From a virus (taxonomy: Duplodnaviria > Caudoviricetes): a stretch of DNA of 63,906 nucleotides. Where the stretch lies: the IMG/VR virus record IMGVR_UViG_3300037325_000356, positions 1 through 63,906 of that record; one strand, 5' to 3'. The notes below the pieces were generated by a model. The model saw nothing but the letters and a program-made list of their open reading frames with translations. It was not told the DNA's origin and did no database searches. Below are positions 1,741 to 63,906 of this stretch, one piece after another. The translations under genes and the position numbers were made by a program. Every line of letters starts with the position of its first letter. The first letter of the stretch is position 1.

Positions 1741-1885
1741 CGCCCTGAGACTCCATTTTGTAGGAGCCTTGCACGGTTGTGAAACCCGCTCCCAGTATAT
1801 CTTCTAAGCCTTTTGGGAGCCTTTTCGACCGGGTGGTAGATTCGTTCAATCCGATGCTTTCTGCAAGCCCTGCACCTGAGAGAGA
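1735..1885 (-). pseudogene. Silent variant segment of the 62555-63304 gene family
   Basis: Translates LSGAGLAESIGLNESTTRSKRLPKGLEDILGAGFTTVQGSYKMES; no start codon. Confidence 0.8.
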
Positions 1886-1889
1886 ATTG

Positions 1890-3085: not shown

Positions 3086-3136
3086 CCCACCCGATCGGTT
3101 CGATACGCACACCCTTTGTGTCAATGGTTTGTATTC

Positions 3137-3285
3137 AGAAGCGAGGTTAGAAGTCCTCACCGTTACTGTAGAGTCTGTATTTTAATTTGTCTTACTATTA
3201 GTAAGAGATCCAAACGACAAGCACAGCAGGTAGAACTCGCTTCTAGTCTCCCTTTTACCTGACTCAATACATGAGTCAGGTTTTG
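3137..3285 (+). repeat. Hairpin element copy 3
   Basis: Same nested palindrome and tail. Confidence 0.95.
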
Positions 3286-3359
3286 GTAAAATCGAAGGGA
3301 AAAAGTGCCACCCGCCCGGTAAGTTAATCTTTGAGAATACCGTTTAAACCAGGAAATAA

Positions 3360-3813: not shown

Positions 3814-4176
3814 TCAATACCCTACAAAATAGGCATCATCTTCTGGATCTATGTCGTCATCATCATCATCAAATAGATCGTCATCATCACCAAATAGATC
3901 GTCATCATCACCAAATAGATCGTCAGTTTCTGCTAAAAGATCGTCATCATCACCAAGTAAGTCGTCATCATCTTCAAGTAATTCGTCATCATCTTCAAGT
4001 AATTCGTCATCATCTTCAAGTAAGTCGTCATCGGACTCGGACTCGTCACCAAAAAGATCGTCGTCATTGTCATTAAATAAAGATTGCAATTCTTCTTGTT
4101 CTTGCACTTCATCCAGAACCCATAAAGCATAACTGTTTTTATCCGCAGTTTTTTCGATCTTGCTATTTTTAGGCAT
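3814..4176 (-). CDS. Extremely acidic heptad-repeat protein (DDDDLFG/EDDDELL)
   Basis: GA-rich leader and ATG start; 21-bp tandem repeats at about 3850-4070. Confidence 0.7.
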   Translation of the reverse strand: MPKNSKIEKTADKNSYALWVLDEVQEQEELQSLFNDNDDDLFGDESESDDDLLEDDDELLEDDDELLEDDDDLLGDDDDLLAETDDLFGDDDDLFGDDDDLFDDDDDDIDPEDDAYFVGY

Positions 4177-4222: not shown

Positions 4223-4555
4223 TCAGCTATTAATCAGCAGCGATCTAATTTGCTGACAAACCCAGATATAAACTTCCACATTGCACCACATCGCAAAGTC
4301 GATCGCTACATCTTTATTTCCCCAAATCCCCCGCTCTTCTGGGGTTCCATGCCGTACCACTTCCATTACAGGATCACCCGTCACAGTTGAAAGCACAAAT
4401 AGGGAATCGCACTTGTCTTTGAGTCTTGGATAACTGTCTGCTTTTTTACCTACCGCTTCTGCTAAATCCGACAAGCTCACCCACAAATCACCATCTCGGT
4501 TATCAAATCGAATCGCATTCGTACCATTAAGTTTTAAAAACGTTAAATCAGACAT
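4223..4555 (-). CDS. KilA-N domain protein
   Basis: WVSLSDLA...GIWGNKDVAIDFAMWCN; TTGACA promoter at 4613-4618. Confidence 0.8.
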   Translation of the reverse strand: MSDLTFLKLNGTNAIRFDNRDGDLWVSLSDLAEAVGKKADSYPRLKDKCDSLFVLSTVTGDPVMEVVRHGTPEERGIWGNKDVAIDFAMWCNVEVYIWVCQQIRSLLINS

Positions 4556-4680
4556 TTTTTGCTCTCTCTCTTGTTTTCCTGTTTCTTTAAGCTATCACAC
4601 CGCAATAGTTGATGTCAATGGTTTGTGCAAGTTAATTTTAAGAAACCCTACACGGCTGGCAATGTATAGGTTTCAGAAAT

Positions 4681-5502
4681 CTAACCAACTACAGAAGACA
4701 ACAGGATAATGTCATCAGGTAGGACTTGCGGTGCTGTTGCCCAATCGGTTGAGGCAATAATGAGATTAGAAGCGGGTAATGTCAGATTAGCTTCATAGAC
4801 ACCGCTAACAGCTTGCAAGGCTCCTATTATCTGCTTAACGACAACATCTTTTCCCATACTTGCTCCGACGCTCTGAATGTACGTGTTAAGTGCCGCAGCG
4901 CACCGTTCTTTGATCGTGTTTATATCAGCCGTTGAATAAGTAGTAATTGTTGCGGCTATCTGAAAATTGATAATTGTGGGAGCTTCTACAGTAAAAACTA
5001 CCAATGTTGGCTTCACTTTGGGATCTGTCAATGCTGCTAGAACTGTTGCTATCAAACCAGCGGACGGTAAACCAGTCTTAGTTATAAATTTCACCGAGAC
5101 GGACGGTGCTACTGTCAAAATAACAGCAACATCGGTAATACTTGGATCAACTCGTTTTACTATTGTTTCAATTTGCTCTTTAGTGCCCGCTGTTGTAAAG
5201 GCTGATGGAGCACTCATTACTCGCAGTCTATAATCATCGTCTGTCTCATTTAACCGTCGGGAAAGACCAAATAACACGCCGATTTCGTCTAGTCTTTCCC
5301 CTAGCGCAAAGTTGATCAATCCGCCTTCAGCCGATCGCTGGATTGATCCGTTTTGCAATCCTGACAGAAATGCTATAACCTCTAACATTATATTTTCTGG
5401 GGTTCCCACAGCGGCGGGTTCATTCCCCAAGTCTTCCCACTTCTGGAATGCTGCTGTCCGTAGTGATGCTGCCGTCTGTCCTGTTAAATTTGGTGCTACC
5501 AT
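4681..5502 (-). CDS. Baseplate J/gp47 family protein
   Basis: ALGERLDEIG...RRLNETDDDYRLR...FTTAGT motif typical of P2 gpJ. Confidence 0.9.
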   Translation of the reverse strand: MVAPNLTGQTAASLRTAAFQKWEDLGNEPAAVGTPENIMLEVIAFLSGLQNGSIQRSAEGGLINFALGERLDEIGVLFGLSRRLNETDDDYRLRVMSAPSAFTTAGTKEQIETIVKRVDPSITDVAVILTVAPSVSVKFITKTGLPSAGLIATVLAALTDPKVKPTLVVFTVEAPTIINFQIAATITTYSTADINTIKERCAAALNTYIQSVGASMGKDVVVKQIIGALQAVSGVYEANLTLPASNLIIASTDWATAPQVLPDDIILLSSVVG

Positions 5503-5661
5503 CTGTTCTCTTCTGACTTTGTTGCCTCTTATCATAGCCTTAAGGCCACATCGCAACCTCAAAACGTAGGTTTTCCCCGACAGCACCTTCAGACGGCTTT
5601 AACCGGGAAAATGAGTCTTAATCTCTCACCGATCGCCCCGCCCGGTGCACCGTCAATTTTT

Positions 5662-5810
5662 AGAAGCGAGTTCACAATTCCTTCACCTTTACTGTAGAGT
5701 CTGTCGTTTAAGTTGTCTTACTATTAGTAAGAGATCCAAACGACAAGCCCATCAGGTAGCACTCGCCTCTAGTCTCCCTTTTACCTGACTCAATACATGA
5801 GTCAGGTTTT
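5662..5810 (+). repeat. Hairpin element copy 4
   Basis: Same nested palindrome and tail. Confidence 0.95.
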
Positions 5811-5824
5811 GGTAAAATCGAAGG

Positions 5825-5952
5825 CGTGATCGCTCTGAGACTGACGGCAAGAGAGAAAAGTTGGTAGACCTTGACAAGCTTTTTCCACGATCCATTTATG
5901 TGCATAGCGTGATTGTAATGAAGAAGCTAGCCCGATCGCCCGTTGGGAGCCC
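5825..5952 (+). repeat. Linker repeat L2 (second copy 21079-21207)
   Basis: About 128 bp, near-identical, and both copies follow an element. Confidence 0.9.
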
Positions 5953-6007
5953 AAAAAAGAAACCCGCGCGGGGCGGGTTCATTGCGGGCGATCGGGGCGG
6001 GTAGAAA

Positions 6008-6724
6008 TTAAGAGTAAAAGTCGATCGCGTCAGTGACTGCTAACAGCGGTTCCAGCCCTCTGTCTATCAACCTCACGGCGTGACCTTCAATTCTGTCTAT
6101 CAACACCAAAGATGCGGCACTATGGGTACTTCTCAGTTCATTTCTGTCGCACGATCGCTCTGCACAAAGTTTGGCTGCTGTTTTCCCGAATAGCGATCGG
6201 TTGATTTTGTCTGAGCAATTCGAGTACACGAACTTTCGGTAATTCTCCGAGACTTCATTTTGCTTGCCCAAATATTCCTTTATTGCGTCGGTCAAAGTGC
6301 GACGGGTAATTTTCCCGGCTAGTCGGGCGGTTAGATATTCTTGCCGATTGTGCTTGTCAAATTCAATCCCAAATGCGTCTGAGAATAACTGGGTGAGTGC
6401 TAGTCCGACTAATGCAAGGTTTAACTCAAGAGCTTTTTTGTTTCCCCTTGAGGACAAAACTACAATGACTTTCTCAAACTCCAAAAGTGTAACACAGTTG
6501 ACAGCCTTTGGGTTCAATGTAGTACGCGCTTTGGATAACTGGAAATCCTCACCCAGTATAGCTTTGATGTCTCTTGATGCGTGAACTTTGGATAACTGGA
6601 ATATACTACAAATCTGTGAAACTGCTACCGCATATTCCCCATTATCCTCAAACCTGAGACCTTCTATTTCCAAAGTTCCCATTTTGACGATCGCGATCGT
6701 AGCTTTGCGTGTTAGAATACTCAT
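6008..6724 (-). CDS. Antirepressor-like DNA-binding protein
   Basis: N-terminus is like 908-1630; the C-terminal ~105 aa are nearly identical to 62555-63304. Confidence 0.7.
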   Translation of the reverse strand: MSILTRKATIAIVKMGTLEIEGLRFEDNGEYAVAVSQICSIFQLSKVHASRDIKAILGEDFQLSKARTTLNPKAVNCVTLLEFEKVIVVLSSRGNKKALELNLALVGLALTQLFSDAFGIEFDKHNRQEYLTARLAGKITRRTLTDAIKEYLGKQNEVSENYRKFVYSNCSDKINRSLFGKTAAKLCAERSCDRNELRSTHSAASLVLIDRIEGHAVRLIDRGLEPLLAVTDAIDFYS

Positions 6725-6827
6725 TAGTTGACCTGCTTTTTAGGTTTACTCATGCACCGGAAATTCGAGTTTCGCGGTGCTTTTCTATTGTAGCATAATA
6801 TCAAAGGTTTGCACTAAAATGCGGTGA

Positions 6828-7320
6828 CGCTCAAACTCCACAAGTGTAACACAGTTGACAGCCTTTGGGTGCAATGTAGTACGCGCTTTGAGGAATTGGA
6901 AACCCGCTCCTAGTATAGCCTTGAGGTCTCTTGATGCGTTCTTTATGAGGAACGAGAATATACTACAAATCTGTGAAACTGCTATCGCATAGTTCTGCCT
7001 TGTACCTTTATTGCGATCGGTTGTCACTCGACATAACTGAAAACCCGCACCCAATATACCTTTCAGCCATTTTGGTGCCCTAATTGGTATAACTGAAAAC
7101 AGCGTCGCGACTTGCTGTTGTGCCCTTCTACCGCTTCTCTGTTTGTCTTGTCTTGATTAAGCCAGAATCCTCTGCCAGTATAACTTTGATGTCTCTTTTG
7201 ACTTGATTAGTGATTAAGCCAAAAAGGCTAGCGACTTGCTGTTGTGCGATCGCATATTCCCCATTGTCATCAAATCGGAGACCTTCAAACTCAAAACTCC
7301 CGATACTGACTGTGATGCGT
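6828..7320 (-). pseudogene. Tandem array of three silent variant segments of the 6008-6724 N-domain
   Basis: Translations: AIAQQQVASLFGLITNQVKRDIKVILAEDSGLIKTR / AQQQVATLFSVIPIRAPKWLKGILGAGFQLCRVTT / AIAVSQICSIFSFLIKNASRDLKAILGAGFQFLKARTTLHPKAVNCVTLVEFE. Confidence 0.85.
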
Positions 7321-7375
7321 TTCTCGACAAAAAAAATCCCCCCAAAGTTGGAGAGATAGCCGAATATTAAATCGA

Positions 7376-7606
7376 TTAGTCGCTTAATAGTTTGGTCGTT
7401 TGGTCGTTTGGTCGTTTGTTCACCAGTGCTAACTGTTCGCCTTTGCTTAATTCCTCAAATTGCACAACTATGGGCTTGTATGTATCCGCGCTGGTAATTT
7501 CTACTTCCCCGTCGCTAAACCAGCGATAAACCGTTTCTGTGTTGCCTAGCAGAAAGGTGGAATATCGAGATAAAAGTTTAGGAGATTCTTTCGTTTGACT
7601 TTGCAT
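7376..7606 (-). CDS. Hypothetical protein
   Basis: Co-oriented small ORF in an operon-like run. Confidence 0.5.
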   Translation of the reverse strand: MQSQTKESPKLLSRYSTFLLGNTETVYRWFSDGEVEITSADTYKPIVVQFEELSKGEQLALVNKRPNDQTTKLLSD

Positions 7607-7611
7607 TTCAA

Positions 7612-7917
7612 TCAATCCTCTAAACTTAAAAAAGTGGCTATTGATGGTTTTGGTTCCGGTTGTGAATAGGTAGACCAATTCCAACCTGGAGGCGTACCGG
7701 GATCTGGATGGTTAGGATCGTCTGAATCGGTGACATCAAAACTGATCAAAAATGTCGGATGTCCTCTCTCGTTTTCGCCTAACTCCGACAGCAACTGTCC
7801 ATCGGTGGTGAATGGCAAAATGTCCTTTTCAGCAAACCCGTAACCAGAGTTAGGCTCTGTTTGTGTTAGGATCAGTAGAACACGCCCCGTCTCGTTTTTC
7901 GTTGTGTTTGGATTCAT
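7612..7917 (-). CDS. Hypothetical protein
   Basis: Co-oriented small ORF. Confidence 0.55.
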   Translation of the reverse strand: MNPNTTKNETGRVLLILTQTEPNSGYGFAEKDILPFTTDGQLLSELGENERGHPTFLISFDVTDSDDPNHPDPGTPPGWNWSTYSQPEPKPSIATFLSLED

Positions 7918-7987
7918 TGTTTTTTCTAGTTTCAGATACATTTTACCCGTTGAAGGAAAGGGGAATAGATCCCCTTTCTACTATCGA

Positions 7988-9067
7988 TTAGAAGGGCATA
8001 TCGGTAAAATCAGCCTCTAACTTTGCAGGCGCTTCTACCGCAAGTTCGGGTGAAGGAGAGCCACTACCACTAATAGCTCGTTGTGGAGGTACAGCAGCCG
8101 ATCGCAAGGTTTCAGGCCGTCTATGCTCATCAATCATTTGGATTGAGGCTTTGACGGTGAAATGCGAATTATATGGTCGGATATCGCCTATCAATAATAT
8201 CAACCGCCGACCTTTAAAGACAGAACCAAGCTTGTTAAAACAGTTGGTCAAATCTTTGTTGGTCGTATAACTCCCCTCCATGTCAACACCGTTAGCGTCT
8301 TGCAGCCATAGCTCCCAATTCGGGGGGAATTTGGCATTCTCAGGTTGTTTAATCTTGGCATAATCGCGAACATACCAGAAGCTATTCTCTCCCAATATGT
8401 GCAGTTTCTTTCGATTGTTTGTGGAGCCTAGCACCTGCAAAAGTAAATCAGAAACCGCTTGAACACCTGCCTTTTCTTGCGGTGTAGCTCCGACAGTTTC
8501 GAGTAAATGCTCGATCAATTCCTTGCTGACTGTGATGTTGTCATCACCTAAAATCTCTGCGATAACCTCGCGACGTTTTTTGATCAGTGGAACTTCGTAT
8601 ATGACCTTGACAGCAGGATTGTTTGGAGTGAACGCGATAGAGACAGAGACAGAGGTACTCTCATCTGAATTCTGATAAATCTTCTCGATCAACCGTCCGG
8701 TAATGTTTCCTACTTTGAAAGTTTTAGCGACAACATTAAATTCGAGTTCGTATTTGTTATCACCGCTTACAAGCCATAACGACTTATCGCCTCCCATGAT
8801 TCCCGGTGCATAAACTGCCGTAACCATATCCCCTTGGACTTTCACCCTGAGCAATGAAGTCTCATCTACTTTTCCGTCATCGCCAGCAGCCTCTAGTAAG
8901 AAGCTGTAAAGATCCGCTCCCTCGTTAATATCCCCCAAACAGAGAGCGTCTGCATGGACTGGATGCCAACCGTCCGCCGGGTACTGTCGAATCGTACACG
9001 AGGGAAACATTGAACCTGCAAATACAATTGTCTTAGTAGGAATGAAGCCATTGCCTTTGATTGCCAT
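7988..9067 (-). CDS. Putative ssDNA-binding or annealing protein
   Basis: Ends in a flexible linker plus EADFTDMPF, like the SSB acidic DxPF tail; TTGACA promoter near 9178. Confidence 0.5.
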   Translation of the reverse strand: MAIKGNGFIPTKTIVFAGSMFPSCTIRQYPADGWHPVHADALCLGDINEGADLYSFLLEAAGDDGKVDETSLLRVKVQGDMVTAVYAPGIMGGDKSLWLVSGDNKYELEFNVVAKTFKVGNITGRLIEKIYQNSDESTSVSVSIAFTPNNPAVKVIYEVPLIKKRREVIAEILGDDNITVSKELIEHLLETVGATPQEKAGVQAVSDLLLQVLGSTNNRKKLHILGENSFWYVRDYAKIKQPENAKFPPNWELWLQDANGVDMEGSYTTNKDLTNCFNKLGSVFKGRRLILLIGDIRPYNSHFTVKASIQMIDEHRRPETLRSAAVPPQRAISGSGSPSPELAVEAPAKLEADFTDMPF

Positions 9068-9329
9068 GATATGTCCTGTTCTTTTCTTCTGGGTGATCTG
9101 TTTTTTCTTGCTGGTTTTGCAGTGCTCATCAAATGGGTTTTTTGTGTCTTTCTCAACCATGTATACATACTAACTGATGTCAACCCTATCTGTCAAGGGT
9201 TTCTATAAAGTATTTTTGAAAAAGGCTGGAAGTGCTGCGGGGTATAGATGTGGGTAACAAATTGGGTGCCAGGCGATCGCTATCGGAGTATAGAGATGCC
9301 TATCGCCGGGCCCGATCGGTCAAGACAGA

Positions 9330-9439
9330 CTCATCTAGCATTATTTTAGAGCTTGGTTAACTGCCTATTAACTGTCTGGCAGTCAAACATTTTTACTACA
9401 ATCGTACTATGCACATAGCTAGAACCTAGCAAAAATGCT
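9330..9439 (+). repeat. Linker repeat L1 (also 60450-60549; partial 29796-29863 and 63685-63753)
   Basis: TGTCTGGCAGTCAAACATTTT...CCTAGCAAAAATGCT always abuts the left end of an element. Confidence 0.9.
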
Positions 9440-9580
9440 AGAAGCGAGTTCACAATTCCTTCACCTTTACTGTAGAGTCTGTCGTTTAAGTTGTCTTACT
9501 ATTAGTAAGAGATCCGAACGACAGACACATCAATTAGAACTCGCTTCTAGCATACCTTTTACCTGACTCTAGTATTGAGG
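9440..9580 (+). repeat. Hairpin element copy 5
   Basis: Same nested palindrome. Confidence 0.95.
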
Positions 9581-9641
9581 ACTTTTGCCAAGAAAAAACC
9601 CGGCGATCGGGAGATCGTCGGGTTGTTTTAGGCAGGTGTGT

Positions 9642-9866: not shown

Positions 9867-9943
9867 CTTTTTCTCTCTCGTTACTGTTCTCTTTAAAAGA
9901 TAGCACACCCAAACACTTTATGTCAATACTTTTTTAATTCTTC

Positions 9944-10085
9944 AGAAGCGAGGTTAGAATTCCTCACCGTTACGGTAGAGTCTGTCGTTTTTACCTTCTT
10001 ACTATTAGTAAGAGATCCGAACGACAAACTCATCAATTGGAACTCGCTTCTAGTCAGCATTATACCTAACTCTAGTATTGTGGAC
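9944..10085 (+). repeat. Hairpin element copy 6
   Basis: Same nested palindrome. Confidence 0.95.
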
Positions 10086-10147
10086 TTTTGGCAAGAAAAA
10101 ACCCGGCGATCGCATCACTTTTGAAACCGTTTGTTTTAGGCAGGTGC

Positions 10148-12622: not shown

Positions 12623-12734
12623 TTTGGTCTCTCTCTTTTTTCTCTTGTTCGATCGTAACACATGGTAATACTTTATGTCAACCCTTCCCAAAGCTATTAA
12701 AAATTGAAAGACCGCCCGCCCGATCGGTCAAGAC

Positions 12735-12875
12735 AGAAGCGAGGTATCAAGTCATCACCTTTACTGTTGTGTCTGTCGTTTCTACCTTCTTACTATTAGT
12801 AAGAGATCCAAACGACAGACACAGCAACTAGAACCCGCCTCTATCCTCCCTTTTACCCGGCTCATGTATTGTGGA
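12735..12875 (+). repeat. Hairpin element copy 7
   Basis: Same nested palindrome. Confidence 0.95.
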
Positions 12876-12936
12876 CTTTGGGCAAGAAAAAACCCGGCGA
12901 TCGGGCGATCGTCGGGTTGTTTCGGCTAGATTGTGT

Positions 12937-13638: not shown

Positions 13639-13730
13639 GACGGTTCTCTCTCGCTAATTTTCCGATCCGGCGATCGCACGTTAGTCTTATTTTAGCATAC
13701 GCAAACACTTTATGTCAATGGTCTTTATCC

Positions 13731-13870
13731 AGAAGCGAGGTATCAAGTCATCACCTTTACTGTTGTGTCTGTAGTTTAAGTTGTCTTACTATTAGTAAGA
13801 GATCCAAACGACAAACACAGCAACTAGAACCCGCTTCTACTCTACCTTTTACCCAACTCAAGTATTGGGG
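13731..13870 (+). repeat. Hairpin element copy 8
   Basis: Same nested palindrome. Confidence 0.95.
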
Positions 13871-13878
13871 GATTTCTG

Positions 13879-14202
13879 CTAAAGCGTGGTGTCAAAAACT
13901 TGGGGTAAAGTCTCAAAAATATATTTAATGTTGAGTGAGACTTGCCGCCCGCTGGTATTGGGTAGCGCGGCGACAGAGACAGCAATCAGTTCAACTCTAG
14001 TCTCAAATGTACGAATTGCTAGACTCATCTCTCTTTCTATCTCGCTGGCTGTTATTTGGTTGCTGTAAACAGCCTCTAGTCCGTACTCTGGCATATAGGG
14101 GATCTCTCCCTTTCGTGTTCGTGCCAATATATACAGAGATTGCTGCACGTCGGTTATTGACTGTCTCGCTAGCCGTCCGCCCGGCACTGATAAATAAAAC
14201 AT
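13879..14202 (-). CDS. Baseplate wedge gpW/gp25 family protein
   Basis: DVQQSLYILARTRKGEIPYMPEYG...AIRTFETRV. Confidence 0.9.
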   Translation of the reverse strand: MFYLSVPGGRLARQSITDVQQSLYILARTRKGEIPYMPEYGLEAVYSNQITASEIEREMSLAIRTFETRVELIAVSVAALPNTSGRQVSLNIKYIFETLPQVFDTTL

Positions 14203-19922: not shown

Positions 19923-20353
19923 TCTATTAGATTATCTACCTCTATCTGTTTGCTCGAATCGGTTGTAGTCAGTTCCATGATGTTTGTCGCTGTATCTTGC
20001 CATTGTTACTCCAACGAAAAACAATAAGCCGACCAACATTAACGTATCACCTGCTTTGGATAAGAATTTCATGATGCTTTTCTCTCTCTCTTTTGTTTGT
20101 TTTGGTTGAACGCCGACTTATTTATCGGCACCATCCGATCGTGCTGTGCACCTACTTCCTCAATATAGCAACAGGAACGGTTTATGTCAAGGGTTTGGGT
20201 CAAGATATTTTTACAGAGTTTTTAGGGGCTTCACGGCACTTTAAGAGTCAAAACGATAAAAGATACGCATCAAGACAGGAACGTGTTCTAGCGGCTAAAA
20301 TGTGGCCAGTCCTAAAGCGGACTGCATTGCAGAGACACCGCCCTTTAATTTTC

Positions 20354-20492
20354 AGAAGCGAGGTTAGAAGTCCTCACCGTTACTGTTGTGTCTGTCGTTT
20401 CTACCTTCTTACTATTAGTAAGAGATCCGAACGACAGACACATCAATTAGAACTCGCTTCTAGGTTGTGTTTTACCTGACTCTAGTATTCGG
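20354..20492 (+). repeat. Hairpin element copy 9
   Basis: Same nested palindrome. Confidence 0.95.
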
Positions 20493-20567
20493 GAATTTTA
20501 GGCGAGAATTGAAGGGGAAAAGTGCCACCCGTCCGCCCGTCCGCCCAAAGCCGATCGGTTAGGGTTC

Positions 20568-20875: not shown

Positions 20876-20913
20876 CCGCCCGATCGCCCGTCCGCCCCGC
20901 CCGGTCAATTTTC

Positions 20914-21058
20914 AGAAGCGAGTTCACAATTCCATCACCACCTTTACTGTAGAGTCTGTAGTTTAAGTTGTCTTACTATTAGTAAGAGATCCAAACGACA
21001 AACTCATCAGCTAGAACTCGCCTCTAGTCAGAACTTTACCTGACTCTAGTATTGAGGA
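20914..21058 (+). repeat. Hairpin element copy 10
   Basis: Same nested palindrome. Confidence 0.95.
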
Positions 21059-21298
21059 ATTTTAGGCGAGAATTGAAGGTGCGATCGCTCTGAGACTAAC
21101 GGCAAGAGAGAAAAGTTGGTAGACCTTGACAAGCTTTTTCCACGATCCATTTATGTGCATAGCGTGATTGTAATGAAGAAGCTAGCCCGATCGCCCGTTG
21201 GGAGCCCGCCCGATCGCCCGATCGGTTCCAACCGTCCGCCCGATCGCCCGATCGGTTCCAACCGTCCGCCCGCCCGATCGCCGCGGGCGTGATTCTTC

Positions 21299-21440
21299 AG
21301 AAGCGAGTTCACAATTCCATCACCACCTTTACTGTAGAGTCTGTGTTTTAATTTGTCTTACTATTAGTAAGAGATCGAAACGACAAACTCATCAGCTAGA
21401 ACTCGCCTCTAGTCAGCACTTTACCTGACTCTAGTATTCG
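21299..21440 (+). repeat. Hairpin element copy 11
   Basis: Same nested palindrome. Confidence 0.95.
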
Positions 21441-21503
21441 TGGATTTTGGCAAGAAAAAACCCGGTGATCGGGAGATCGCCGGGTTGTTTTAGGCTTTGG
21501 GAG

Positions 21504-22283: not shown

Positions 22284-22355
22284 CTTTTTTCTCTCTCTCG
22301 TTACTGTTTTTTCAGTCTACCACACACAAACACTTTATGTTAATGGTTTGTATTC

Positions 22356-22495
22356 AGAAGCGAGGTATCAATTCCTCATCGTTACTGTAGAGTCTGTCGT
22401 TTTTACCTTCTTACTATTAGTAAGAGATCCAAACGACAGACACAGCAACTAGCACCCGCTTCTATCCTCCCTTTTACCTGACTCTAGTATTGAGG
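22356..22495 (+). repeat. Hairpin element copy 12
   Basis: Same nested palindrome. Confidence 0.95.
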
Positions 22496-22543
22496 GATTT
22501 AGGCAAGAAAAAACCCGGCGATCGGGAGATCGTCGGGTGGTTT

Positions 22544-24857: not shown

Positions 24858-24985
24858 CTTTTTTTTGTCTATTGGTTCTTTACAACCTACCATACATAAA
24901 CTATTTATGTCAATGGGATGTGTAAAATATTTTGAAACAGGCTCTAACCGCCCGGTCGTTTGGACTTTTTTACGACTAAAACCGT

Positions 24986-25126
24986 GAATACTAGAGTCGG
25001 GTAAAAGGTAGACTAGAAGCGAGTTCTAGTTGCTGTGTCTGTCGTTTGGATCTCTTACTAATAGTAAGAAGGTAGAAACGACAGACTCAACAGTAAAGGT
25101 GAAGAGGAAATTGTGAACTCGCTTCT
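24986..25126 (-). repeat. Hairpin element copy 13 (inverted)
   Basis: GGATCTCTTACTAATAGTAAG core. Confidence 0.95.
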
Positions 25127-25196
25127 GTCTTGACTGATCGGGCGGGGCGATCGGGCGATCGGGCGATCGTCCTATCACCGGCGATCGTCCTATCAC

Positions 25197-25946: not shown

Positions 25947-26013
25947 ATCACCAACCGCCCCGATCGCCCGTAATGAACCCGCCCCGCGCGGGTTTTTTCT
26001 TTCCCAAAAGCCG

Positions 26014-26151
26014 CCAATACATGAGTCAGGTATAATGCTGACTAGAAGCGAGTTCTAGTTGCTGTGTCTGTCGTTTGGATCTCTTACTAATAGTAAGAAG
26101 GTACAAACGACAGACACAACAGTAACGATGAGGAATTGTGAACTCGCTTCT
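26014..26151 (-). repeat. Hairpin element copy 14 (inverted)
   Basis: Same core. Confidence 0.95.
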
Positions 26152-26396
26152 GTCTTGACCGATCGGGCGGGCGATCGCATCTCCTATATTCCACCGGAAC
26201 CATCAGTAGCGCCATTCTTTGAGGCATTAAAGCCCTGTTAGTCACAGTTCCCATCAAACGTACCGACACCCGCCCGATCGCACGGAAAGAGTTCCTTGTC
26301 TTGACCGGAAAAATCTTTTTCAAACTTCCCGGTAAAAAGGGTTTCTGTATGGTAGGATTAGATAGCGAGCAAAAAACAAACGAAAGAGAGAGTAAA

Positions 26397-29599: not shown

Positions 29600-29863
29600 T
29601 TTTTGTCTCTCTCTCGTTTTCTTTGACTTCTAAAGACTAGCAGACATCAATAGTATCTGTCAAGGGTTTTGATAAAATACTTTTAAGATTGGCTAGAACG
29701 GCTTAAGGGCAAGGCTTTTAGAAAAAAATCAACCGATAGCAGGACTCATCATTAAGACTTGCCACCTACAGCGCGTGATATTGTGGCAAACGTATTGTCT
29801 GGCAGTCAAACATTTTTACTACAATCGTACTATGCACATAGCTAGAACCTAGCAAAAATGCTT

Positions 29864-30012
29864 AGAAGCGAGGTATCAATTCCTCACCTTTACTGTAGAG
29901 TCTGTCGTTTGTACCTTCTTACTATTAGTAAGAGATCCAAACGACAGACACAACAGGTAGGACTCGCTTCTAGTCTCCCTTTTACCTGACTCAATACATG
30001 AGTCAGGTTTTT
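29864..30012 (+). repeat. Hairpin element copy 15
   Basis: Same nested palindrome and tail. Confidence 0.95.
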
Positions 30013-30137
30013 GGTAAAATCCCGGTGCTCTTGAAAACTATTTTTAGAACTTCCCGGATATAAACCCTTTGCGCGGTAAGCTATATTAAGCGAGACAAAC
30101 ACACTCGCACTAAAAGACAACCCAAAGACAAAACAAG

Positions 30138-34494: not shown

Positions 34495-34590
34495 TTAAAT
34501 ATTGCATTTAAGGCCTCTCAAAACCCGGCAAGACTGTCTCACCGGGTTTTGTGCTTCTTGCCTCGCTGCTGCGATATATTGGGGATGTGC

Positions 34591-34738
34591 AGAAGCGAGG
34601 TATCAATTCCTCACCTTTACTGTTGTGTCTGTCGTTTCTACCTTCTTACTATTAGTAAGAGATCCAAACGACAGACACAACAACTAGAACTCGCTTCTAG
34701 TCTACCTTTTACCTAACTCAATACATGAGTCAGGTTTT
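34591..34738 (+). repeat. Hairpin element copy 16
   Basis: Same nested palindrome and tail. Confidence 0.95.
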
Positions 34739-34830
34739 TGAAGGCGCACCGGGAAGTTGAATTTGAAAAAATAGAGTCTAGCTGTTGTGTTAGGTTAGAG
34801 CCAAACATCAAAAAAATAGGATAAAAAACA

Positions 34831-36823: not shown

Positions 36824-37079
36824 TCTCAGTCTCTCTCTCGTTTGTTTTTGTTTGCTTATTTAAGACTACCATACATAAACCCTTTTTACCGGAAAGTTTT
36901 AAAAGTATTTTTAGACAGATACATTCAACCCGCTCTGACTATCTGGCGGGTGTTGGTACGTTTCCACATAACCGAGACTAACAGGGCTTTAATGCCTCAA
37001 AGAATGGCGCTACTGAGGTTTGCGGTGGAAGATAGGAGATGCGATCGCCCGATCGCCCGATCGCCCGATCGGTCAAGAC

Positions 37080-37228
37080 AGAAGCGAGGTATCAAGTCCT
37101 CATCTTTACTGTTGAGTTTGTCGTTTCTACCTTCTTACTATTAGTAAGAGATCCAAACGACAGACACAGCAACTAGAACCCGCCTCTAATCTACCTTTTA
37201 CCTGACTCAATACATGAGTCAGGTTTTG
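37080..37228 (+). repeat. Hairpin element copy 17
   Basis: Same nested palindrome and tail. Confidence 0.95.
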
Positions 37229-37291
37229 GTAAAATTGAAGGGAAAAAGTGCCACCCGCCCGGTAGGTTCCAGCTGCCCGATCGGGAGCATC

Positions 37292-44762: not shown

Positions 44763-44960
44763 CCGGTTTTCGAGTTTTTTAAGTCTGATTTGGTTTTTAG
44801 AGAGAACGGCTGAGGTAGCCGACTTGCTTCTCCCTAACTTTACATCCGTTTGACGACGGGTGTATTTTTTTGCTTCTTCCCCAAGATAGCAACACGAACG
44901 GTTTATGTCAATGGTTTTGATGGAGATATTCTAATGAGGTTTCCTGTCATCCTATACAAC

Positions 44961-45107
44961 AAACCTGACTCATGTATTGAGTCAGGTAAAAGGGAGGATA
45001 GAAGCGGGTTCTAGTTGCTGTGTCTGTCGTTCGGATCTCTTACTAATAGTAAGAAGGTAGAAACGACAAACTCTACCGTAACGGTGAGGACTTCTAACCT
45101 CGCTTCT
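44961..45107 (-). repeat. Hairpin element copy 18 (inverted)
   Basis: Same core and tail. Confidence 0.95.
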
Positions 45108-45342
45108 GTCTTGATCGATCGGGTGGGCGATCGCATCTCCTATATTCCACCGAAAACCTCACGAGCGCGGTTATTTGAGGCATTAAAGCCCTGTTAGTCT
45201 CGGTTCTGTAGAAACGTACCACGCCAGCCACCGCCCGATCAATTACGGGAATCCCCGCAGGCTACGGACAGCTCTTTTGAACGCACCGATCGCGCCTAAC
45301 ACTTAACCCGCCCCGCGCGGGTTTTTTCTTGCCCAAAGTCCC

Positions 45343-45480
45343 CAATACTAGAGTCAGGTAAAATACTGACTAGAAGCGAGTTCTAGTTGCTGTGTCTGTC
45401 GTTTAGATCTCTTACTAATAGTAAGACAACTTAAACTACAGACTCTACAGTAAAGGTGAAGGAATTGTGAACTCGCTTCT
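45343..45480 (-). repeat. Hairpin element copy 19 (inverted)
   Basis: Same core. Confidence 0.95.
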
Positions 45481-45504
45481 GAAGAATCACGCCCGCGGCG
45501 ATCG

Positions 45505-53897: not shown

Positions 53898-56800
53898 ATG
53901 CCTGATCTAAAAATTACAGTGACTGTAGATGATTCTGCTGTATCAGCTTTAGAAGGCAGACTAAGAGGGTTGTCTGGTGCTGCTAGTGGTGTTGGTGGTG
54001 TTGGAGGTTCGGCAACATCTCAGACTCAAAAATTCGGTGAAAGTCTGCAAAGTGTAGGCGGCGCTATGTCAACTTTGGGCGGGTTAACATTAGCAGCAAC
54101 TGCACCCGCAATAGCCGGATTTGGAGCGTCGGCAAAAGCCGCAATTGATTATGAATCCGCACTCGCAGATGTTCAGAAAATTTCAGATTTCAAGGCGGGG
54201 ATGGGTAGCGACTTCTCTAATGGTTTACTCGAATTATCGGCAAGTTTAGGGAGTGTTAACCCTAACGATTTGGCCGCTATATCGGCTGGTATGGTAAGAC
54301 CTGGGCAGAGTGCACAAGACCTGTTATTAGCATCTGAAGCCGTATCGAAAATGGGTGTAGCTTTCAATATGAGTGCGGCAGATTCCGGTAAAGCATTAGG
54401 CAAGTTATCCACAGCTTTTAAAGTGCCTGCACGGGATATGAAAACTTTTGTGGGAGGGCTTAACGAATTATCAAACAAGACAGGGATTGCAGGGAAAGAT
54501 TTAGTTAATTTTATGTCGAGTAGTTCTGAATTAGCGGGTAGAATGCCAGCAACCGACGTAGCGGCAATGGGCACGGCCTTAATTAGCGCGGGTATAGCCT
54601 CAGCTAGAAGCGGGCGATCTATCTCGTCTATATCCTCTAAGTTGATGATGGCTAGCAGCTTATCAAATAAAGCTAAAGCCTCTTTTAAAGATATGGGAGT
54701 AAGTGCTAAAGACTTGGAAGCTGATGTCTCAAAGCGCGGCGCACCGGCTATTGTTGACTTTTTAGAAAAAATCAACAAAATACCGACAGCCGCCAAAAAA
54801 ACCGAGGCATTGAATAACATTTTTGGTGCTGACTTTGCACGAACGGCTGGGGTATTAGCTAATAATTTGGGACAGGTTAGAAGCAACTTGAAAGCAGTTT
54901 CAGATCAGAAAGCGGTAGCCTCGTCAGTTGATAGAGAATATGCAGTCAGGCAAGCAACAACAGCTAACCAATTAAAAACATTTGGTGCAACAGCACAAAG
55001 AGTCGGGATCGCAGTAGGATCGGGGCTTTTGCCTGCTATTAATGACGTGGGAAAGGCGGTTCTGCCGATGGCTAATGAGTTTGCAAAATTTGCTACCGCT
55101 AACCCAGGTATTGTAAAAAATGCTGTAGCGTTTACTGGGGTTGCAGCGGCGGGCGGTTTGGCTTTAAGCGTCGCGGGTAGTCTCGCAACCTCGATCGGCG
55201 CGATCGCCACCGCAGCACCTATTATCGGAGGCGCGGTTGCAGGCATCGGAGGGGCGGTAGTAGGGGCGGGCGGCGCGGTAGTAGGTGCTGGCGTGGCAAT
55301 GGGCACCGCTTTGGTTGGTATCGGATCGGCCGCTGTGAGTGTTGGAGGCGCGGTAGTAGGTGCTGGCGTTTCGATGGGAACCGCTGTTGTTGGAGCGGCA
55401 ACAGGAGCCGCCACACTAGCAGGCAGTTTATTATCAATTCCAGCCGTCGGTTTGGCCGCAGCAACAGTCGCAGGTTTAGGCTTAGGTGTCGCCATCCACA
55501 AAGCGATTAACCCAGCAACCGATCTAAATACTATTATTCCTGATATAGGCTTAGGTGCTAAGCAATCGTGGCAAGATGTCAGCACTGCCGGATCTCAACT
55601 TTGGAGCGATTTAAAACTCGGAGGCAAACAAACATTAACAGATTTAGGAAGCGGTTTCACTTCAGTTAAAGATACTGTTGGATCGGCTTTTACAGGTGTT
55701 ACCGAGTCCGTCGGCTCTGCTTTTACAGGTGCTTTAACAAACGTGACCGGGTTTGTTACTTCGATCGGTACAAGTTTCTCGACTGTCGGAACTACTATCA
55801 GCACAGCTTTTTCTACAGTCGGAACCTCTATTAGCACAGCGTTTACAGGCGCTTTAACAAACGTGACCGGGTTTGTTACTTCGATCGGTACAAGTTTCTC
55901 GACTGTCGGAACTACTATCAGCACAGCCTTTTCTACAGTCGGAACCTCTATTAGCACAATCTTTACAGGATTAGGTTCAACTATTACCGGGTTTGTTACT
56001 TTGATCGGTACAAGTTTCTCGACTGTCGGAACTACTATCACTACAGCCTTTTCTACAGTCGGAACCTCTATTAGCACAATCTTTACAGGATTAGGTTCAA
56101 CTATTACCGGGTTTGTTACTTCGATCGGTACAAGTTTCTCGACTGTCGGAACTACTATCACTACAGCCTTTTCTACAGTCGGAACCTCTATTAGCACAAT
56201 CTTTACAGGATTAGGTTCAACTATTACCGGGTTTGTTACTTCGATCGGTACAAGTTTCTCGACTGTCGGAACTACTATCACTACGGCCTTTTCTACAGTC
56301 GGAACCTCTATTAGCACAATCTTTACAGGATTAGGTTCAACTATTACCGCTTTTGTTACTTCCGTTAGCACTGCATTTTCTACAATCGGAACCTCGATCA
56401 GCACGGCAATGAGTGCCGCAATGACTAGCGTACAATCTGCGGTTTCAGGGATGCAAACAGCCATATCGACTATGGCTTCCAGTATTCAAACAGCTTTTTC
56501 TACAATGGGTACAGCCATCAGTACCGCGATGTCCGGTGCTTTGACTGCCATACAGGCATCTATTACCAGTATTCAAAGCGCGATCTCTGCAATGGCAACC
56601 TCTATGCAGGCTAGCTTTGCTGCTGCGGGTGCGGCCATGCAATCAGGAATGACGGCGGCTGTTGCTGGCGTTCAAGCTGCTTTGACTGGGTTATCTTCAG
56701 CCGCTAGTGCTGCCGGATCAGCTTTAGCGGCCGCTGCAAATTCTGCCGTCGGAGCGTGGCAAGCTTTAGCAGGTGCTATTGGTGCAGCCGTTTCTGCTGC

Positions 56801-57125
56801 ACAGAGCGCCGCTACTGCTGTTGCTGGGGCGGCTAGTAGTGCTGCTAGTGCAGTTGCTGGTATTGCAGGCGGCGGTGCCAAGGGTGTGTCTAGCGGTGCT
56901 AAAGGCTTAGACGCTTCTCCTTCTCCGTTCCCTCGCTATACCGCACCCGGTGGCCTCGGAGGCGGTGCAACTAATATCAATTTCTCACCACAAATCGGAG
57001 TGAATGGCGTTTCCTCTTTCAATGCGAGGGATTTTATCCGCGAATTGCGATCGCATGAATCCGAATTTGCAAACTACCTTAGTAGTCTCACTAACAGACA
57101 AAATCGCTTTAAATATTCCGATTGA
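53898..57125 (+). CDS. Tape measure protein (TP901-like)
   Basis: AAIDYESALADVQK, Ala/Gly-rich, 11/18-residue aromatic periodicity. Confidence 0.95.
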   Translation: MPDLKITVTVDDSAVSALEGRLRGLSGAASGVGGVGGSATSQTQKFGESLQSVGGAMSTLGGLTLAATAPAIAGFGASAKAAIDYESALADVQKISDFKAGMGSDFSNGLLELSASLGSVNPNDLAAISAGMVRPGQSAQDLLLASEAVSKMGVAFNMSAADSGKALGKLSTAFKVPARDMKTFVGGLNELSNKTGIAGKDLVNFMSSSSELAGRMPATDVAAMGTALISAGIASARSGRSISSISSKLMMASSLSNKAKASFKDMGVSAKDLEADVSKRGAPAIVDFLEKINKIPTAAKKTEALNNIFGADFARTAGVLANNLGQVRSNLKAVSDQKAVASSVDREYAVRQATTANQLKTFGATAQRVGIAVGSGLLPAINDVGKAVLPMANEFAKFATANPGIVKNAVAFTGVAAAGGLALSVAGSLATSIGAIATAAPIIGGAVAGIGGAVVGAGGAVVGAGVAMGTALVGIGSAAVSVGGAVVGAGVSMGTAVVGAATGAATLAGSLLSIPAVGLAAATVAGLGLGVAIHKAINPATDLNTIIPDIGLGAKQSWQDVSTAGSQLWSDLKLGGKQTLTDLGSGFTSVKDTVGSAFTGVTESVGSAFTGALTNVTGFVTSIGTSFSTVGTTISTAFSTVGTSISTAFTGALTNVTGFVTSIGTSFSTVGTTISTAFSTVGTSISTIFTGLGSTITGFVTLIGTSFSTVGTTITTAFSTVGTSISTIFTGLGSTITGFVTSIGTSFSTVGTTITTAFSTVGTSISTIFTGLGSTITGFVTSIGTSFSTVGTTITTAFSTVGTSISTIFTGLGSTITAFVTSVSTAFSTIGTSISTAMSAAMTSVQSAVSGMQTAISTMASSIQTAFSTMGTAISTAMSGALTAIQASITSIQSAISAMATSMQASFAAAGAAMQSGMTAAVAGVQAALTGLSSAASAAGSALAAAANSAVGAWQALAGAIGAAVSAAQSAATAVAGAASSAASAVAGIAGGGAKGVSSGAKGLDASPSPFPRYTAPGGLGGGATNINFSPQIGVNGVSSFNARDFIRELRSHESEFANYLSSLTNRQNRFKYSD
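55720..56400 (+). repeat. 120-bp (40-aa) tandem repeat, about 5.5 copies, in the tape measure gene
   Basis: Near-identical sequence every 120 nt. Confidence 0.95.
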
Positions 57126-57130
57126 ATCCA

Positions 57131-57268
57131 CCAATACATGAGTCGGGTAAAAGGTAGATTAGAAGCGAGTCCTACCTGTAGAGGCTGTCGTTTGGATCTC
57201 TTACTAATAGTAAGAAGGTAAAAACGACAGACTCTACAGTAACGGTGAGGACTTCTAACCTCGCTTCT
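57131..57268 (-). repeat. Hairpin element copy 20 (inverted)
   Basis: Begins about 6 nt after the tape measure stop codon. Confidence 0.95.
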
Positions 57269-57745
57269 GAATACCTGAGAAAGCGTTACCTGAAAACTGG
57301 GCGGACAGTACACCCTATAACTCAAATGTCTTCTGAGATGTGTTCAATTTGACGATTAAGAACCTTTAGACTCGTTTCGATGGCAATATACGTTTGCCAC
57401 GATATCACGCGCTGTAGGTAGCAGAGATTAGGGCTTGACAGAAAGACAATCAAGAGAGATGATAAGTATGAAGGAAAAGACAACAGGACACCCGCCTAGG
57501 GATTGAAAAACTGCAAACAATAAACCCTGTTGTTTTTTCTTTCTCTTAAATTTAGTCCTTGACAAATTGACCACAGAGAGAGAGAATACAAAAGCCTGCA
57601 TTCCACTAATGCGTTGGCTAGCGATTGATACGGGGATAACTTCTGACACTTACCCGGATCGCTCTATTTCGTACCTCCTTCAAACAGAAAACCATCTAAT
57701 TCTTGCGGAATTAGATGGTTTTTTATCTGGATTGAACCGGACAAA

Positions 57746-60302: not shown

Positions 60303-60549
60303 TCACCACCTTTCTTTTTTGCTTCTTTAAGCTATCACGCGACAAAGGTTTATGTCAAGGGTTTCGGTAAAATATTTTTAAAACAGGCTCTAACCTTGAC
60401 CCCATATAGAACTGAGTTAGGAGTGAATGGCCCGATCGGTCAAGACAGACTCATCTAGCATTATTTTAGAGCTTGGTTAACTGTCTGGCAGTCAAACATT
60501 TTTACTACAATCGTACTATGCACATAGCTAGAACCTAGCAAAAATGCTT

Positions 60550-60690
60550 AGAAGCGAGTTCACAATTCCATCACCTTTACTGTTGTGTCTGTCGTTTCTA
60601 CCTTCTTACTATTAGTAAGAGATCCAAACGACAGACACAGCAGCTAGAACTCGCTTCTAATCTAACTTTTACCTGACTCTAGTATTGAGG
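60550..60690 (+). repeat. Hairpin element copy 21
   Basis: Same nested palindrome. Confidence 0.95.
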
Positions 60691-60722
60691 GATTTTGGCA
60701 AGAAAAAACCCGCGCGGGGCGG

Positions 60723-61655
60723 CTAGATTCTGAGAACAGCGATCGCGCCGTAAACTTCGGGTTCACCTGCAATATTAGCGGGTGCTCCTAGCGTGTTTAA
60801 AGCTATTGGGTTTGTGGCTTCAACCATTGTCTCGATCGAGAAACTATTCGCGCTTGAAAGCGTAAACGCCGCCTCAAAATAAGAGAAGCCGTTGAAATCG
60901 TCACCTGACAAGGTGGAAGCGACGTTAGAGCCTTTGTAGATGGTATTTGTAGTTCTATTTACAAATTGAGACTTGAACCGTCCACAGACTGCACAACTGA
61001 TATATCCCCAAACAACGTAAGAGCCCGGTTGTAGCGTGACTCTGCCGTTAGAAAGTCCGATCGAACTGGTACTCTTTACTGTCGTTGTGAAACCTCTTTC
61101 TACCCAAATAGAGGGAGCCGCAGATCCGCCACCTGTACCTGTCGCTGCTTGTATTTGATAGCAAGCTGTCGCCATCCTGTCAGATCCGCTCGGTGAATTG
61201 CTCCAACCAAAAGCCCCATTACTTGTAACTTCTATGACTTTACCCTGTTGCTTTCCTAATGTTACCAACTCCGCAAGCCTAGGGGAAAATTCTAGAACCG
61301 AAACGCCCACTACATACTGATCCGACTCAATCTTTAGGTTTGTTGCGTTAGTTGATAGCGCAGGATATTCTGTCAATCTGATCGGTATTAATTCCTCTAT
61401 TGTTGTTAGTTTCTCTCGTGATTGTTGATTCTGAGTGAAAGTGTTTGTCTGTAAAGTTCTTAATGATTGAAGGCTTGTTAGATAGGCTGTCGCTGCTGTT
61501 ATCTGTACGTTCAAAGCTGCTAAATGTGCAGAGGCCTCTGTAGTTGCATTTTCGATTACTGTCTTGTTTGCGAGATTTAAAGCAGACAGCTCGTTAACTA
61601 TCTGATTGAAATTAGCAGCAAGGTTTGTATCTGTTCTTTCTAACTGGTTAACCAT
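60723..61655 (-). CDS. Fibre-like virion protein (paralogue 3 of 3)
   Basis: LAELVTLGKQQG, GTGGG...WVERGFTT...TLQPGSY, EVYG. Confidence 0.65.
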   Translation of the reverse strand: MVNQLERTDTNLAANFNQIVNELSALNLANKTVIENATTEASAHLAALNVQITAATAYLTSLQSLRTLQTNTFTQNQQSREKLTTIEELIPIRLTEYPALSTNATNLKIESDQYVVGVSVLEFSPRLAELVTLGKQQGKVIEVTSNGAFGWSNSPSGSDRMATACYQIQAATGTGGGSAAPSIWVERGFTTTVKSTSSIGLSNGRVTLQPGSYVVWGYISCAVCGRFKSQFVNRTTNTIYKGSNVASTLSGDDFNGFSYFEAAFTLSSANSFSIETMVEATNPIALNTLGAPANIAGEPEVYGAIAVLRI

Positions 61656-63304: not shown

Positions 63305-63417
63305 CAGTTCGCCTGCTTTATAGGTTGACTCATGCACCGGAAATTCAAGTTTCGCGGTGTTTTTTTATTGTAGCATAATAGCAAAGGTTTGCACTAAAAT
63401 GCGTTAAGGAAGTGTTG

Positions 63418-63689
63418 AGCTTGTGGTATCCCACAGGTTGAGCTTTGACCATGAGTTTTGAGTGTTTTTGTACTGCCCTTGTAACGTGGTAAAACCCGCT
63501 CCCAGCATAGCTTTGAGGTCTTCAGACAGCCGATTTTGTAACGTGGTATTTCTGTGTAATCCGATACTTTCTGCAAGCCCCGCACCTGAGAGATAGTTGA
63601 TAAATTTGCCTGTCGCGGGGTCAATCTCATTAGCCGTGTAACCGTCAACTGTTACCGCGCCGATCGCAAATTCTGTCTTGAAAACTGTC
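63418..63689 (-). pseudogene. Silent variant N-domain of 62555-63304
   Basis: TVFKTEFAIGAVTVDGYTANEID...KLNLWDTTS; lacks the native start and lies upstream of the promoter. Confidence 0.85.
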
Positions 63690-63753
63690 TGGCAGTCAAA
63701 CATTTTAACTACAATCGTACTATGCACATAGCTAGAACCTAGCAAAAATGCTT

Positions 63754-63906
63754 AGAAGCGAGTTCACAATTCCCTCACCGTTACGGTAGAGTTTGTCGTT
63801 TCTACCTTCTTACTATTAGTAAGAGATCTAAACGACAGACACAGCAACTAGAACTCGCTTCTAGTCAGTATTTTACCTGACTCTAGTATTGGGGACTTTG
63901 GGCAAG
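63754..63906 (+). repeat. Hairpin element copy 22 (same as copy 1 if circular)
   Basis: Same nested palindrome. Confidence 0.95.

Follow-up and report, generated by a model that had tools for sequence, protein, structure and literature searches.

Three partial gene copies lie stacked directly upstream of an intact member of the same gene family in the IMG/VR virus record IMGVR_UViG_3300037325_000356. We analyzed all 63,906 bases of this record (the window), whose completeness is estimated at 96% and which encodes a large terminase, a DNA polymerase III beta-like protein, a baseplate J protein and a KilA-N protein. The intact gene, called the live gene here, encodes a predicted DdrC-like DNA-binding protein of 238 amino acids (aa); the partial copies are named fragments A, B and C. 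The HIP1 octamer GCGATCGC, an excess of which is a hallmark of cyanobacteria, occurs 29 times in the window against 0.74 expected, and the only cellular relatives of the live gene that turned up were in Anabaena azotica and a Nostoc sp.; the virus is therefore most likely a cyanophage. Public runs holding the stretch are labeled as salt-lake metagenomes. No GenBank phage matched positions 5900–7700, and the neighboring gene at 7988–9160 led to no syntenic relatives in viral contigs or in three related virus records.

The fragments sit between a terminator and a promoter module. Read 5′ to 3′ on the minus strand, the upstream gene (7376–7684) ends in an intrinsic-terminator-like hairpin and T-run (7336–7357) that directly abuts fragment C (7131–7322). 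A 7-base junction filler (7124–7130), fragment B (6992–7123) and fragment A (6830–6991) follow, and then the promoter and leader module with the start region (6725–6829), the live gene (6008–6724) and a terminator-like hairpin (5960–5980). All three fragments share the minus-strand orientation of the live gene. The initial annotation had described three tandem, start-less partial copies upstream of the promoter, and this description held at 7322–7131, 7123–6992 and 6991–6830. None of them contains an in-frame ATG, GTG or TTG giving a covering open reading frame (ORF), the sole exception being a TTG inside B (ORF 6785–7054). B and A share an open frame of about 122–123 codons; C lies in another frame and ends in a stop. 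Searching with the 122-codon B+A frame returned six matches, none of which spanned the B|A junction. Lying between terminator and promoter and lacking starts, the fragments are predicted to be silent, as had been claimed for them. The locus holds promoter-less, start-less partial copies near a single expression site.

Each fragment is a version of one segment of the gene, resembling alleles that are intact elsewhere. Fragment A covers gene residues 31–84 and pairs an A-type core with flanks near-identical to those of the live gene; it is 86% identical to that gene over 162 nucleotides (nt) (tblastn E 3.6e-21), and its translation is 87% identical to family protein P0003 and 85% to P0013, the product of the gene at locus L009. 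Fragment B corresponds to residues ~35–77 of a B-type allele, with P0005 as its best match (93% aa identity over 43–44 aa, E 7.9e-22), and shares only ~31 nt with the live gene. Fragment C represents residues ~6–72 of a C-type allele; it matches the live gene at a tblastn E of 3.3e-14 and P0021 and P0028 at 78% aa identity, and its first 66 nt (7310–7245) are 77% identical to positions 6688–6623 of the gene, a repeat designated D3. The E values of all three lie well outside what chance would give. The proposal that the pieces are alternative versions of the specificity-bearing segment is borne out.

The fragments meet at short, nearly overlap-free junctions. Overlaps amount to 0–2 nt at C|B (7124–7130), B|A (6992/6991) and A|promoter (6830/6829). 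Shared microhomologies had been thought to join the cassettes, and the motifs in question do exist: a 12-mer recurs in C, at the start of A and in the live gene, and a 17-mer recurs in C and at the start of B. They are, however, the homologous 5′ ends of fragments and not overlaps common to both sides of a junction. Fragment 5′ ends fall near residues 31–40 in about six of ten junctions tabulated by hand and post hoc, and 3′ ends fall at residues 72–100, in a count whose detection step requires a conserved core.

A conserved promoter and leader module precedes the live gene. It combines a TGn-extended −10 element at minus-strand 6795–6787, conserved before family genes in 12 aligned upstream regions, with a leader hairpin at 6780–6754 whose nine pairs include three with compensatory changes among nine sequences. 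This combination precedes family genes in many records, and it recurs in the window at 1631–1735 and 63338–63400, so that ~85 nt are nearly identical at the three paralogs in the genome. We infer the promoter of the live gene from conservation only; a strict sigma-70 consensus scan of 5800–7800 gave 0 promoter-like sites on either strand. No known RNA family was matched in 5600–7800 (Rfam, E ≤ 1). Strings resembling −35 and −10 elements, picked out by eye inside the fragments, had raised antisense promoters as a candidate, which was dropped when the scan returned no site on either strand.

The live gene encodes a protein that is, by prediction, DdrC-like. No Pfam family matches it, including the antirepressor, Bro-N and KilA-N families PF02498, PF03374, PF04383 or their relatives, and the antirepressor-like label that it had been given finds no support there. 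An AlphaFold model built on 32 homologues is confident (predicted local distance difference test, pLDDT, 88.7). Foldseek found nothing in the PDB at E ≤ 0.001, after which an exhaustive VIA structure search was run. The model suggests an N-terminal winged helix-turn-helix (HTH)/Dachshund-like domain (residues ~5–92) followed by a helical C-domain, and sequence similarity to DdrC is detectable: the family profile matches the DdrC C-domain at E 9e-7 (query 122–230). The C-domain also matches phrog_2657 and the PADLOC candidate PDC-S22. DdrC of Deinococcus radiodurans is described as a DNA-binding dimer that captures DNA breaks two at a time, and its authors report no identifiable homologues outside Deinococcus (PMC9303277, PMC11347143). 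Unlike DdrC, the present family belongs to phages and cyanobacteria, occurs in several copies per genome and has a hypervariable N-terminal domain. The live gene extends DdrC, described as Deinococcus-specific, to phages and Nostocales.

Variation in the family concentrates on two co-varying patches around a conserved helix. Within the segment covered by the fragments, the model places a strand at residues 31–34, helices at 35–42 and 49–57 separated by a loop, and, after a further loop, a hairpin at 64–68/75–79; the variable segment is predicted to be an HTH plus wing. The initial annotation had suggested checking by structure prediction whether it is the recognition helix. Across the family the second HTH helix is conserved and variation lies in the loops on either side, at residues ~43–46 and 62–65. 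In the live gene, the variable core (6529–6601) consists of two identical 16-nt direct repeats around the conserved helix, at 6529–6544 and 6586–6601, 57 nt apart, which encode the two patches. The two patches change together and often carry the same residues. The live gene has QLS/QLS, fragment A has FL/FL and C has GLI/GLI; other alleles show FD/FD, FP/FP, FV/FV or TR/TR. Equivalent co-varying sites were seen in A, B and C and at loci L007, L009, L010, L022, L026, L028 and L029.

The co-variation extends to codons. Identical residue pairs use identical codons in 37 of 46 cases against 18.6 expected from codon usage, a post hoc count over 13 of 26 non-independent rows of alleles with available DNA, namely those in which the best internal repeat is offset by 19 residues at the HTH site; in the 13 rows excluded, the best repeat is trivial or lies at another place. 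Each fragment keeps a short direct-repeat pair 56–57 nt apart, and B-type alleles carry the same 11-nt string twice, 56 nt apart, in different reading frames. A co-varying patch pair around an HTH helix is an unusual feature of the gene, and it may reflect surface-loop contact, recognition of a symmetric target or a nucleotide-level feature.

The core of the live gene appears to have been replaced. In a gap-free codon alignment, the differences between fragment A and the live gene number 3 in 93 bases of flank and 20 in 69 bases of core (Fisher p 4e-6): flanks of 36 nt and 57 nt, 97% identical, surround a 29%-diverged core. The near-identical flanks noticed in the initial annotation are thus real. 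Divergence between A and the L009 gene is even (12/93 flank, 9/69 core), and between the live gene and L009 it is 11/93 in the flanks and 20/69 in the core. Taken together, the contrast between A and the live gene and the evenness between A and L009 suggest that the live gene is an A-lineage allele with a replaced core and that fragment A kept the old one. The live core sequence is absent from A, B, C and the rest of the record, B and C matching it in short runs only; its nearest likeness is to the core of P0002, which together with P0003 is among the closest relatives. The expressed variable region is therefore not built from resident segments, and its swap is best read as segmental recombination with a donor other than a resident fragment.

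All three fragment types are live in full genes elsewhere, which answers a check on relatives that the initial annotation had suggested. A-type segments occur in the core of the L009 gene (P0013), in P0003, which is 84% identical to the live gene overall, and in P0058; C-type segments occur in P0021 and P0028. B-type segments occur in P0005, the second of two tandem genes at L010, and in contigs of public samples. Partial copies beside the live gene thus each match alleles live in other genomes. Beside these matches we observed short forms in which the N-domain is joined directly to the last ~65 residues, namely L009 3946–4401 (P0013, 151 aa) and P0021 (139 aa); similar internal deletions in two alleles may reflect recurrent deletion or a genuine short architecture.

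Population samples contain alternative forms of the array. We placed Logan contigs from four runs (X1–X4, of which X1 is possibly the source sample of the record) on 5600–8000; contigs, unlike raw reads, drop rare variants, and rare converted alleles are not visible in them. X2 contig 13 carries B at 132/132 nt identity (0 differences) and continues into a full gene 5′ end, joined via a HIP1 site to a 5′ end and leader differing from the window at 18 of 118 bases. X4 contig 25 (depth 257) contains this full B-type gene as well, with five differences to B. In both, the 5′ end and leader differ from those of the window at 17–18 of 118 bases, which places the gene on a different backbone. HIP1 sites are reported, in work of the 1990s, to promote excision. 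The 5′ end of B falls inside the HIP1 site of the full allele, and the fragment|promoter junction at the paralog 908–1630 has a 7/8 HIP1 match; HIP1-like strings are so common here that neither proves anything. In a further X2 contig, C runs as far as 7148 and passes directly into the gene at 6478, which adds another instance of the C type.

X3 holds a form from which most of the array is gone. In its contig 19, position 6644 is fused to 7267, and the sequences flanking the fusion carry 0 and 3 differences. The resulting 622-bp deletion takes out the promoter, fragments A and B and the 3′ portion of C; apart from this bridging contig, X3 has no cover over 6977–7219. The deletion is an in-register recombination at repeat D3, where the 5′ ends of C and the gene are 77% identical. 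Upstream of the fused frame, the sequence of the window offers no ATG, GTG or TTG, and the X3 form would be a dead gene unless one of the three differences creates a start. An analogous polymorphism exists in another lineage: in L010 and L011 the gene is preceded by a relic start, then a fragment, then a second leader, and L016 lacks these 268 nt, an absence lying precisely between two copies of the gene start.

Fragment debris also lies at two further paralogs in the window and across the clade. A partial type-II N-domain (63410–63688, minus strand, residues ~5–97) lies directly upstream of the promoter module of gene 62555–63337 and is a mosaic of that paralog (D15, 83% over 223 nt). A start-less type-II N-domain fragment (1742–1888, minus strand, residues ~33–83) stands directly upstream of the module of gene 908–1630, whose own N-domain is of a different type. 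Two paralogs within the genome are 95% identical over their 3′ 254 nt (D11). Alignment reveals the whole gene family as a fine-scale mosaic in which N-domain versions (type I, type II and KilA-N) are swapped among alleles.

Other members of the clade repeat the pattern. Fragments occur in L007, L010/L011 and L016, several being type II beside a type-I gene. L007 has a type-II-like piece before a type-I gene. Its 4348–6405 region shows, as a separate observation, a gene split after residue ~110 by a 409-aa ORF that resembles TnpB/OrfB by eye and not by family search, with the C-terminal part resuming at 5983 after the TnpB-type insertion. L016 carries residues 1–84 of one allele, then residues 40–92 of another, then a full gene. 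Scraps of ~20 aa from the C-terminus lie downstream of genes in L010, L011, L016 and L019. The P0059 and P0060 ORFs, decoded by hand, contain a partial tandem duplication of ~residues 34–85 whose second copy is out of frame and starts near residue 34; in P0060 the second copy comes from the same allele. The more distant viral loci L021–L044 are mostly single clean genes, a few (such as L043) having extra partial copies. Debris of this kind is general in the clade and not tied to a matching expression site.

We consider it probable that the fragments are recent and unstable scars, left when members of a multi-copy family undergoing diversification recombined unequally or illegitimately, and at most a passive reservoir of alleles. 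How their origin divides between serial events and one multi-switch repair event is uncertain within this reading, and the single event, taken separately, is unlikely. The fragments appear young by sequence, with B identical to a full-gene contig at 132/132 positions and the A flanks differing at 3/93, and the array appears unstable, given the X3 deletion form and the analogous difference between L016 and L010/L011. Scarring would account for this youth and instability, for the mismatch between fragment and gene types, for the 3′ scraps, for B and C lacking flanks and for a live core foreign to the array. Also in its favor are the live counterparts of every fragment type, the debris at other loci, the fine-scale mosaic of the family and the small number of more distant loci with extra partial copies.

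Such scars could arise by unequal or illegitimate recombination, or by template switching, between co-infecting related phages or between paralogs. Each event would place a new promoter-plus-gene unit, or a new stretch of allele, after the truncated N-domain left from the copy before it, and further junctions would then remove starts and promoters. The fragments keep stretches of homology with the live gene and for that reason recombine with it, yielding deletions, of which X3 is an observed case, and probably also core swaps, as the mosaic suggests. They would form at most a passive, short-lived store of alleles and not a dedicated switching device. Turnover may be driven by diversifying selection on the two co-varying surface patches flanking the second HTH helix.

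Several observations weigh against reading the fragments as scars. Their anatomy, promoter-less, start-less, tandem, adjoining the expression site and covering the same segment, resembles that of classical silent-cassette loci. By sequence, the mosaic of A and the live gene exactly matches the trace expected of segmental conversion at the expression site, and the clustering of fragment boundaries hints at a preferred unit or hotspot over random breaks. A, B and C contain no internal stop or frameshift relative to their live relatives, and neutral decay was not apparent, an intactness that the youth of the fragments could explain equally well. Finally, rare converted alleles in the source population could go unseen in contigs.

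A selected reservoir of silent cassettes is an alternative we regard as doubtful. Segmental conversion into the live gene, or into paralogs in trans, would re-assort the two specificity patches. This would account for the silent tandem layout of partial copies beside an expression site, for the 97%-identical A flanks around a 29%-diverged core and for the clustered boundaries; it would sit well with cassette types in full genes of relatives and with the same arrangement at the second paralog (62555–63337). Its defining evidence would be isogenic genomes with a resident cassette copied into the expression site, which contigs would not reveal. No isogenic converted allele was found: the X1 contigs hold no variant in 6470–6630, and the predicted alleles matching the cassettes there on the window's own backbone were not seen in contigs of any of the four runs. 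The live core matches no resident fragment, and flank homology with the expression site is confined to A, B offering ~31 nt and C a 77% 5′ block, so that B and C have no usable flanks. Type-mismatched fragments and 3′ scraps occur elsewhere, the array is lost in X3 with a product lacking a visible start, and a non-exhaustive search identified no recombination-promoting element or dedicated recombinase near the locus. Of the proposed role as gene-conversion donors, exchange with the live gene is supported by the A mosaic and the 622-bp deletion; the contigs gave no support for transfer of a resident cassette into the expression site.

A single complex event is less probable again. Replication would have repaired a break in the N-domain region while switching template several times between alleles present in the co-infection. 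This origin suits a stretch of 500 bp in which four illegitimate junctions share one orientation and each lead back into the same segment, with overlaps of 0–2 nt and with B identical to a co-circulating allele. The fragments nonetheless seem to differ in age, A being ~3% off the gene flanks, C 78% identical to known alleles and B identical to a live one. Moreover, P0058, known as protein only, appears to have its own start and an A-type N-domain that breaks off near the same residue, which suggests that the A|promoter junction is older than the B|A junction.

A non-coding function is improbable. Fragments could act as decoy or operator sites for the DNA-binding proteins of the family, or as templates for antisense RNA against rival alleles, and the repeat pair kept 56–57 nt apart in each fragment, in different frames in B, and the excess of identical patch codons (37/46 against 18.6) would fit either role. 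Against both stand the lack of any promoter-like site on either strand of 5800–7800 or of an Rfam match, the dispensability of the array in the X3 form, and the fact that repeat identity is explicable by protein-level co-variation from identical starting codons. An assembly artefact of a hypervariable region is highly improbable: metagenome assemblies can join alleles at shared k-mers and many short variant contigs map here, but two overlapping, independent X1 contigs (6299–6902 and 6890–7419) match the window with 0 differences at depths of 29.6–35.9 over the array against 32.7 in neighboring genes, the junctions are offset and not in register, unlike shared-k-mer joins, and similar arrays occur in unrelated assemblies. 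A diversity-generating retroelement was also rejected, since no reverse transcriptase was found (0 PF00078 matches at E ≤ 1), as the initial annotation had stated, and the differences between A and the gene involve many kinds of base and are not adenine-specific.

The window contains further repeats. An intergenic element of ~150 nt is dispersed in at least 20 copies in both orientations, at 8–156, 2511–2727, 3099–3315, 5625–5841, 9403–9619, 9906–10122, 12697–12913, 13693–13909, 20316–20532, 20880–21096, 21265–21481, 22318–22534, 29826–30042, 34553–34769, 37042–37258, 60513–60729 and 63717–63899, with inverted copies near 24966–25127, 25987–26176, 44955–45132, 45305–45504 and 57104–57283. Its strongly conserved core resembles nested helices: its ends are complementary over a long range, a second complementary pair lies inside them, and a hairpin occupies the center. 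A terminator-like hairpin follows many of the copies. The copy at 5625–5860 had no Rfam match at E ≤ 1, and metagenome contig depth is very high over 5681–5761. Copies flank the module 5841–9403, which contains the fragment array. Elsewhere, a 120-nt unit is repeated six times in tandem at 55626–56465, with identity between copies of up to 98%, inside a 1075-codon ORF (53898–57125), and a 21-nt tandem repeat at 3836–4045 encodes part of a highly acidic, D/E/L-rich ORF of 120 aa (3814–4176, minus strand).

The locus exposes intermediates of phage recombination. Phage mosaicism is usually inferred by comparing finished genomes. Here, one locus and four public samples display three stacked partial alleles, a deletion form and full genes bearing the 'silent' types. 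It is a place to measure the rate and junction types by which a phage specificity determinant is exchanged in nature, and it allows debris to be tested as waste or as a usable store of alleles.

Two bacterial systems come close to this arrangement in layout. At Neisseria pilS/pilE and Borrelia vls/vlsE, silent partial copies without promoter or start lie beside one expressed gene, and expressed alleles are mosaic. The array shares with them tandem copies that cover the variable segment beside one expressed gene, and population alleles that are mosaic. Unlike them, it belongs to a virus, has only three copies, two without flanking homology, and has a live core that is not cassette-derived; it showed no isogenic switching, can disappear through simple recombination, and has comparable debris at other loci and at 3′ ends. 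There is a small chance that the virus keeps a library of silent allele segments among its DdrC-like gene copies, with short-tract recombination re-assorting the two co-varying patches. If so, it would be the first pilS/vls-style variation system in a phage, working through general recombination instead of a reverse transcriptase or invertase, and the clustered boundaries (~residues 31–40 and 72–100) would mark the cassette unit. Judged by titles and abstract openings, a literature search on silent cassettes and gene conversion in bacteriophages gave no phage cassette system, and a search on HIP1 and cyanophage recombination gave nothing on the present topic.

Displaced modules and shuffled domains offer the other comparisons. 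Rhs/CDI polymorphic toxin genes have displaced orphan modules beside the live gene, left by successive recombinational replacement. Like these orphans, the partial copies match alleles live in other strains and are able to recombine back; unlike them, the displaced pieces are N-terminal DNA-binding segments that lie upstream, and there are no toxin or immunity genes. Iyer and colleagues reportedly described in 2002 domain shuffling among viral DNA-binding proteins of the KilA-N, Bro-N and APSES types, including multi-copy bro genes. The present family is likewise a multi-copy viral one whose winged-helix-like N-terminal DNA-binding domain is swapped among alleles. Shuffling of DNA-binding domains is also described for phage homing-endonuclease families (PMC8263062). 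By contrast, the live gene has no Pfam match to KilA-N or Bro-N, and the shuffling seen here exchanges stretches of only tens of bases and leaves behind arrays of fragments in tandem.
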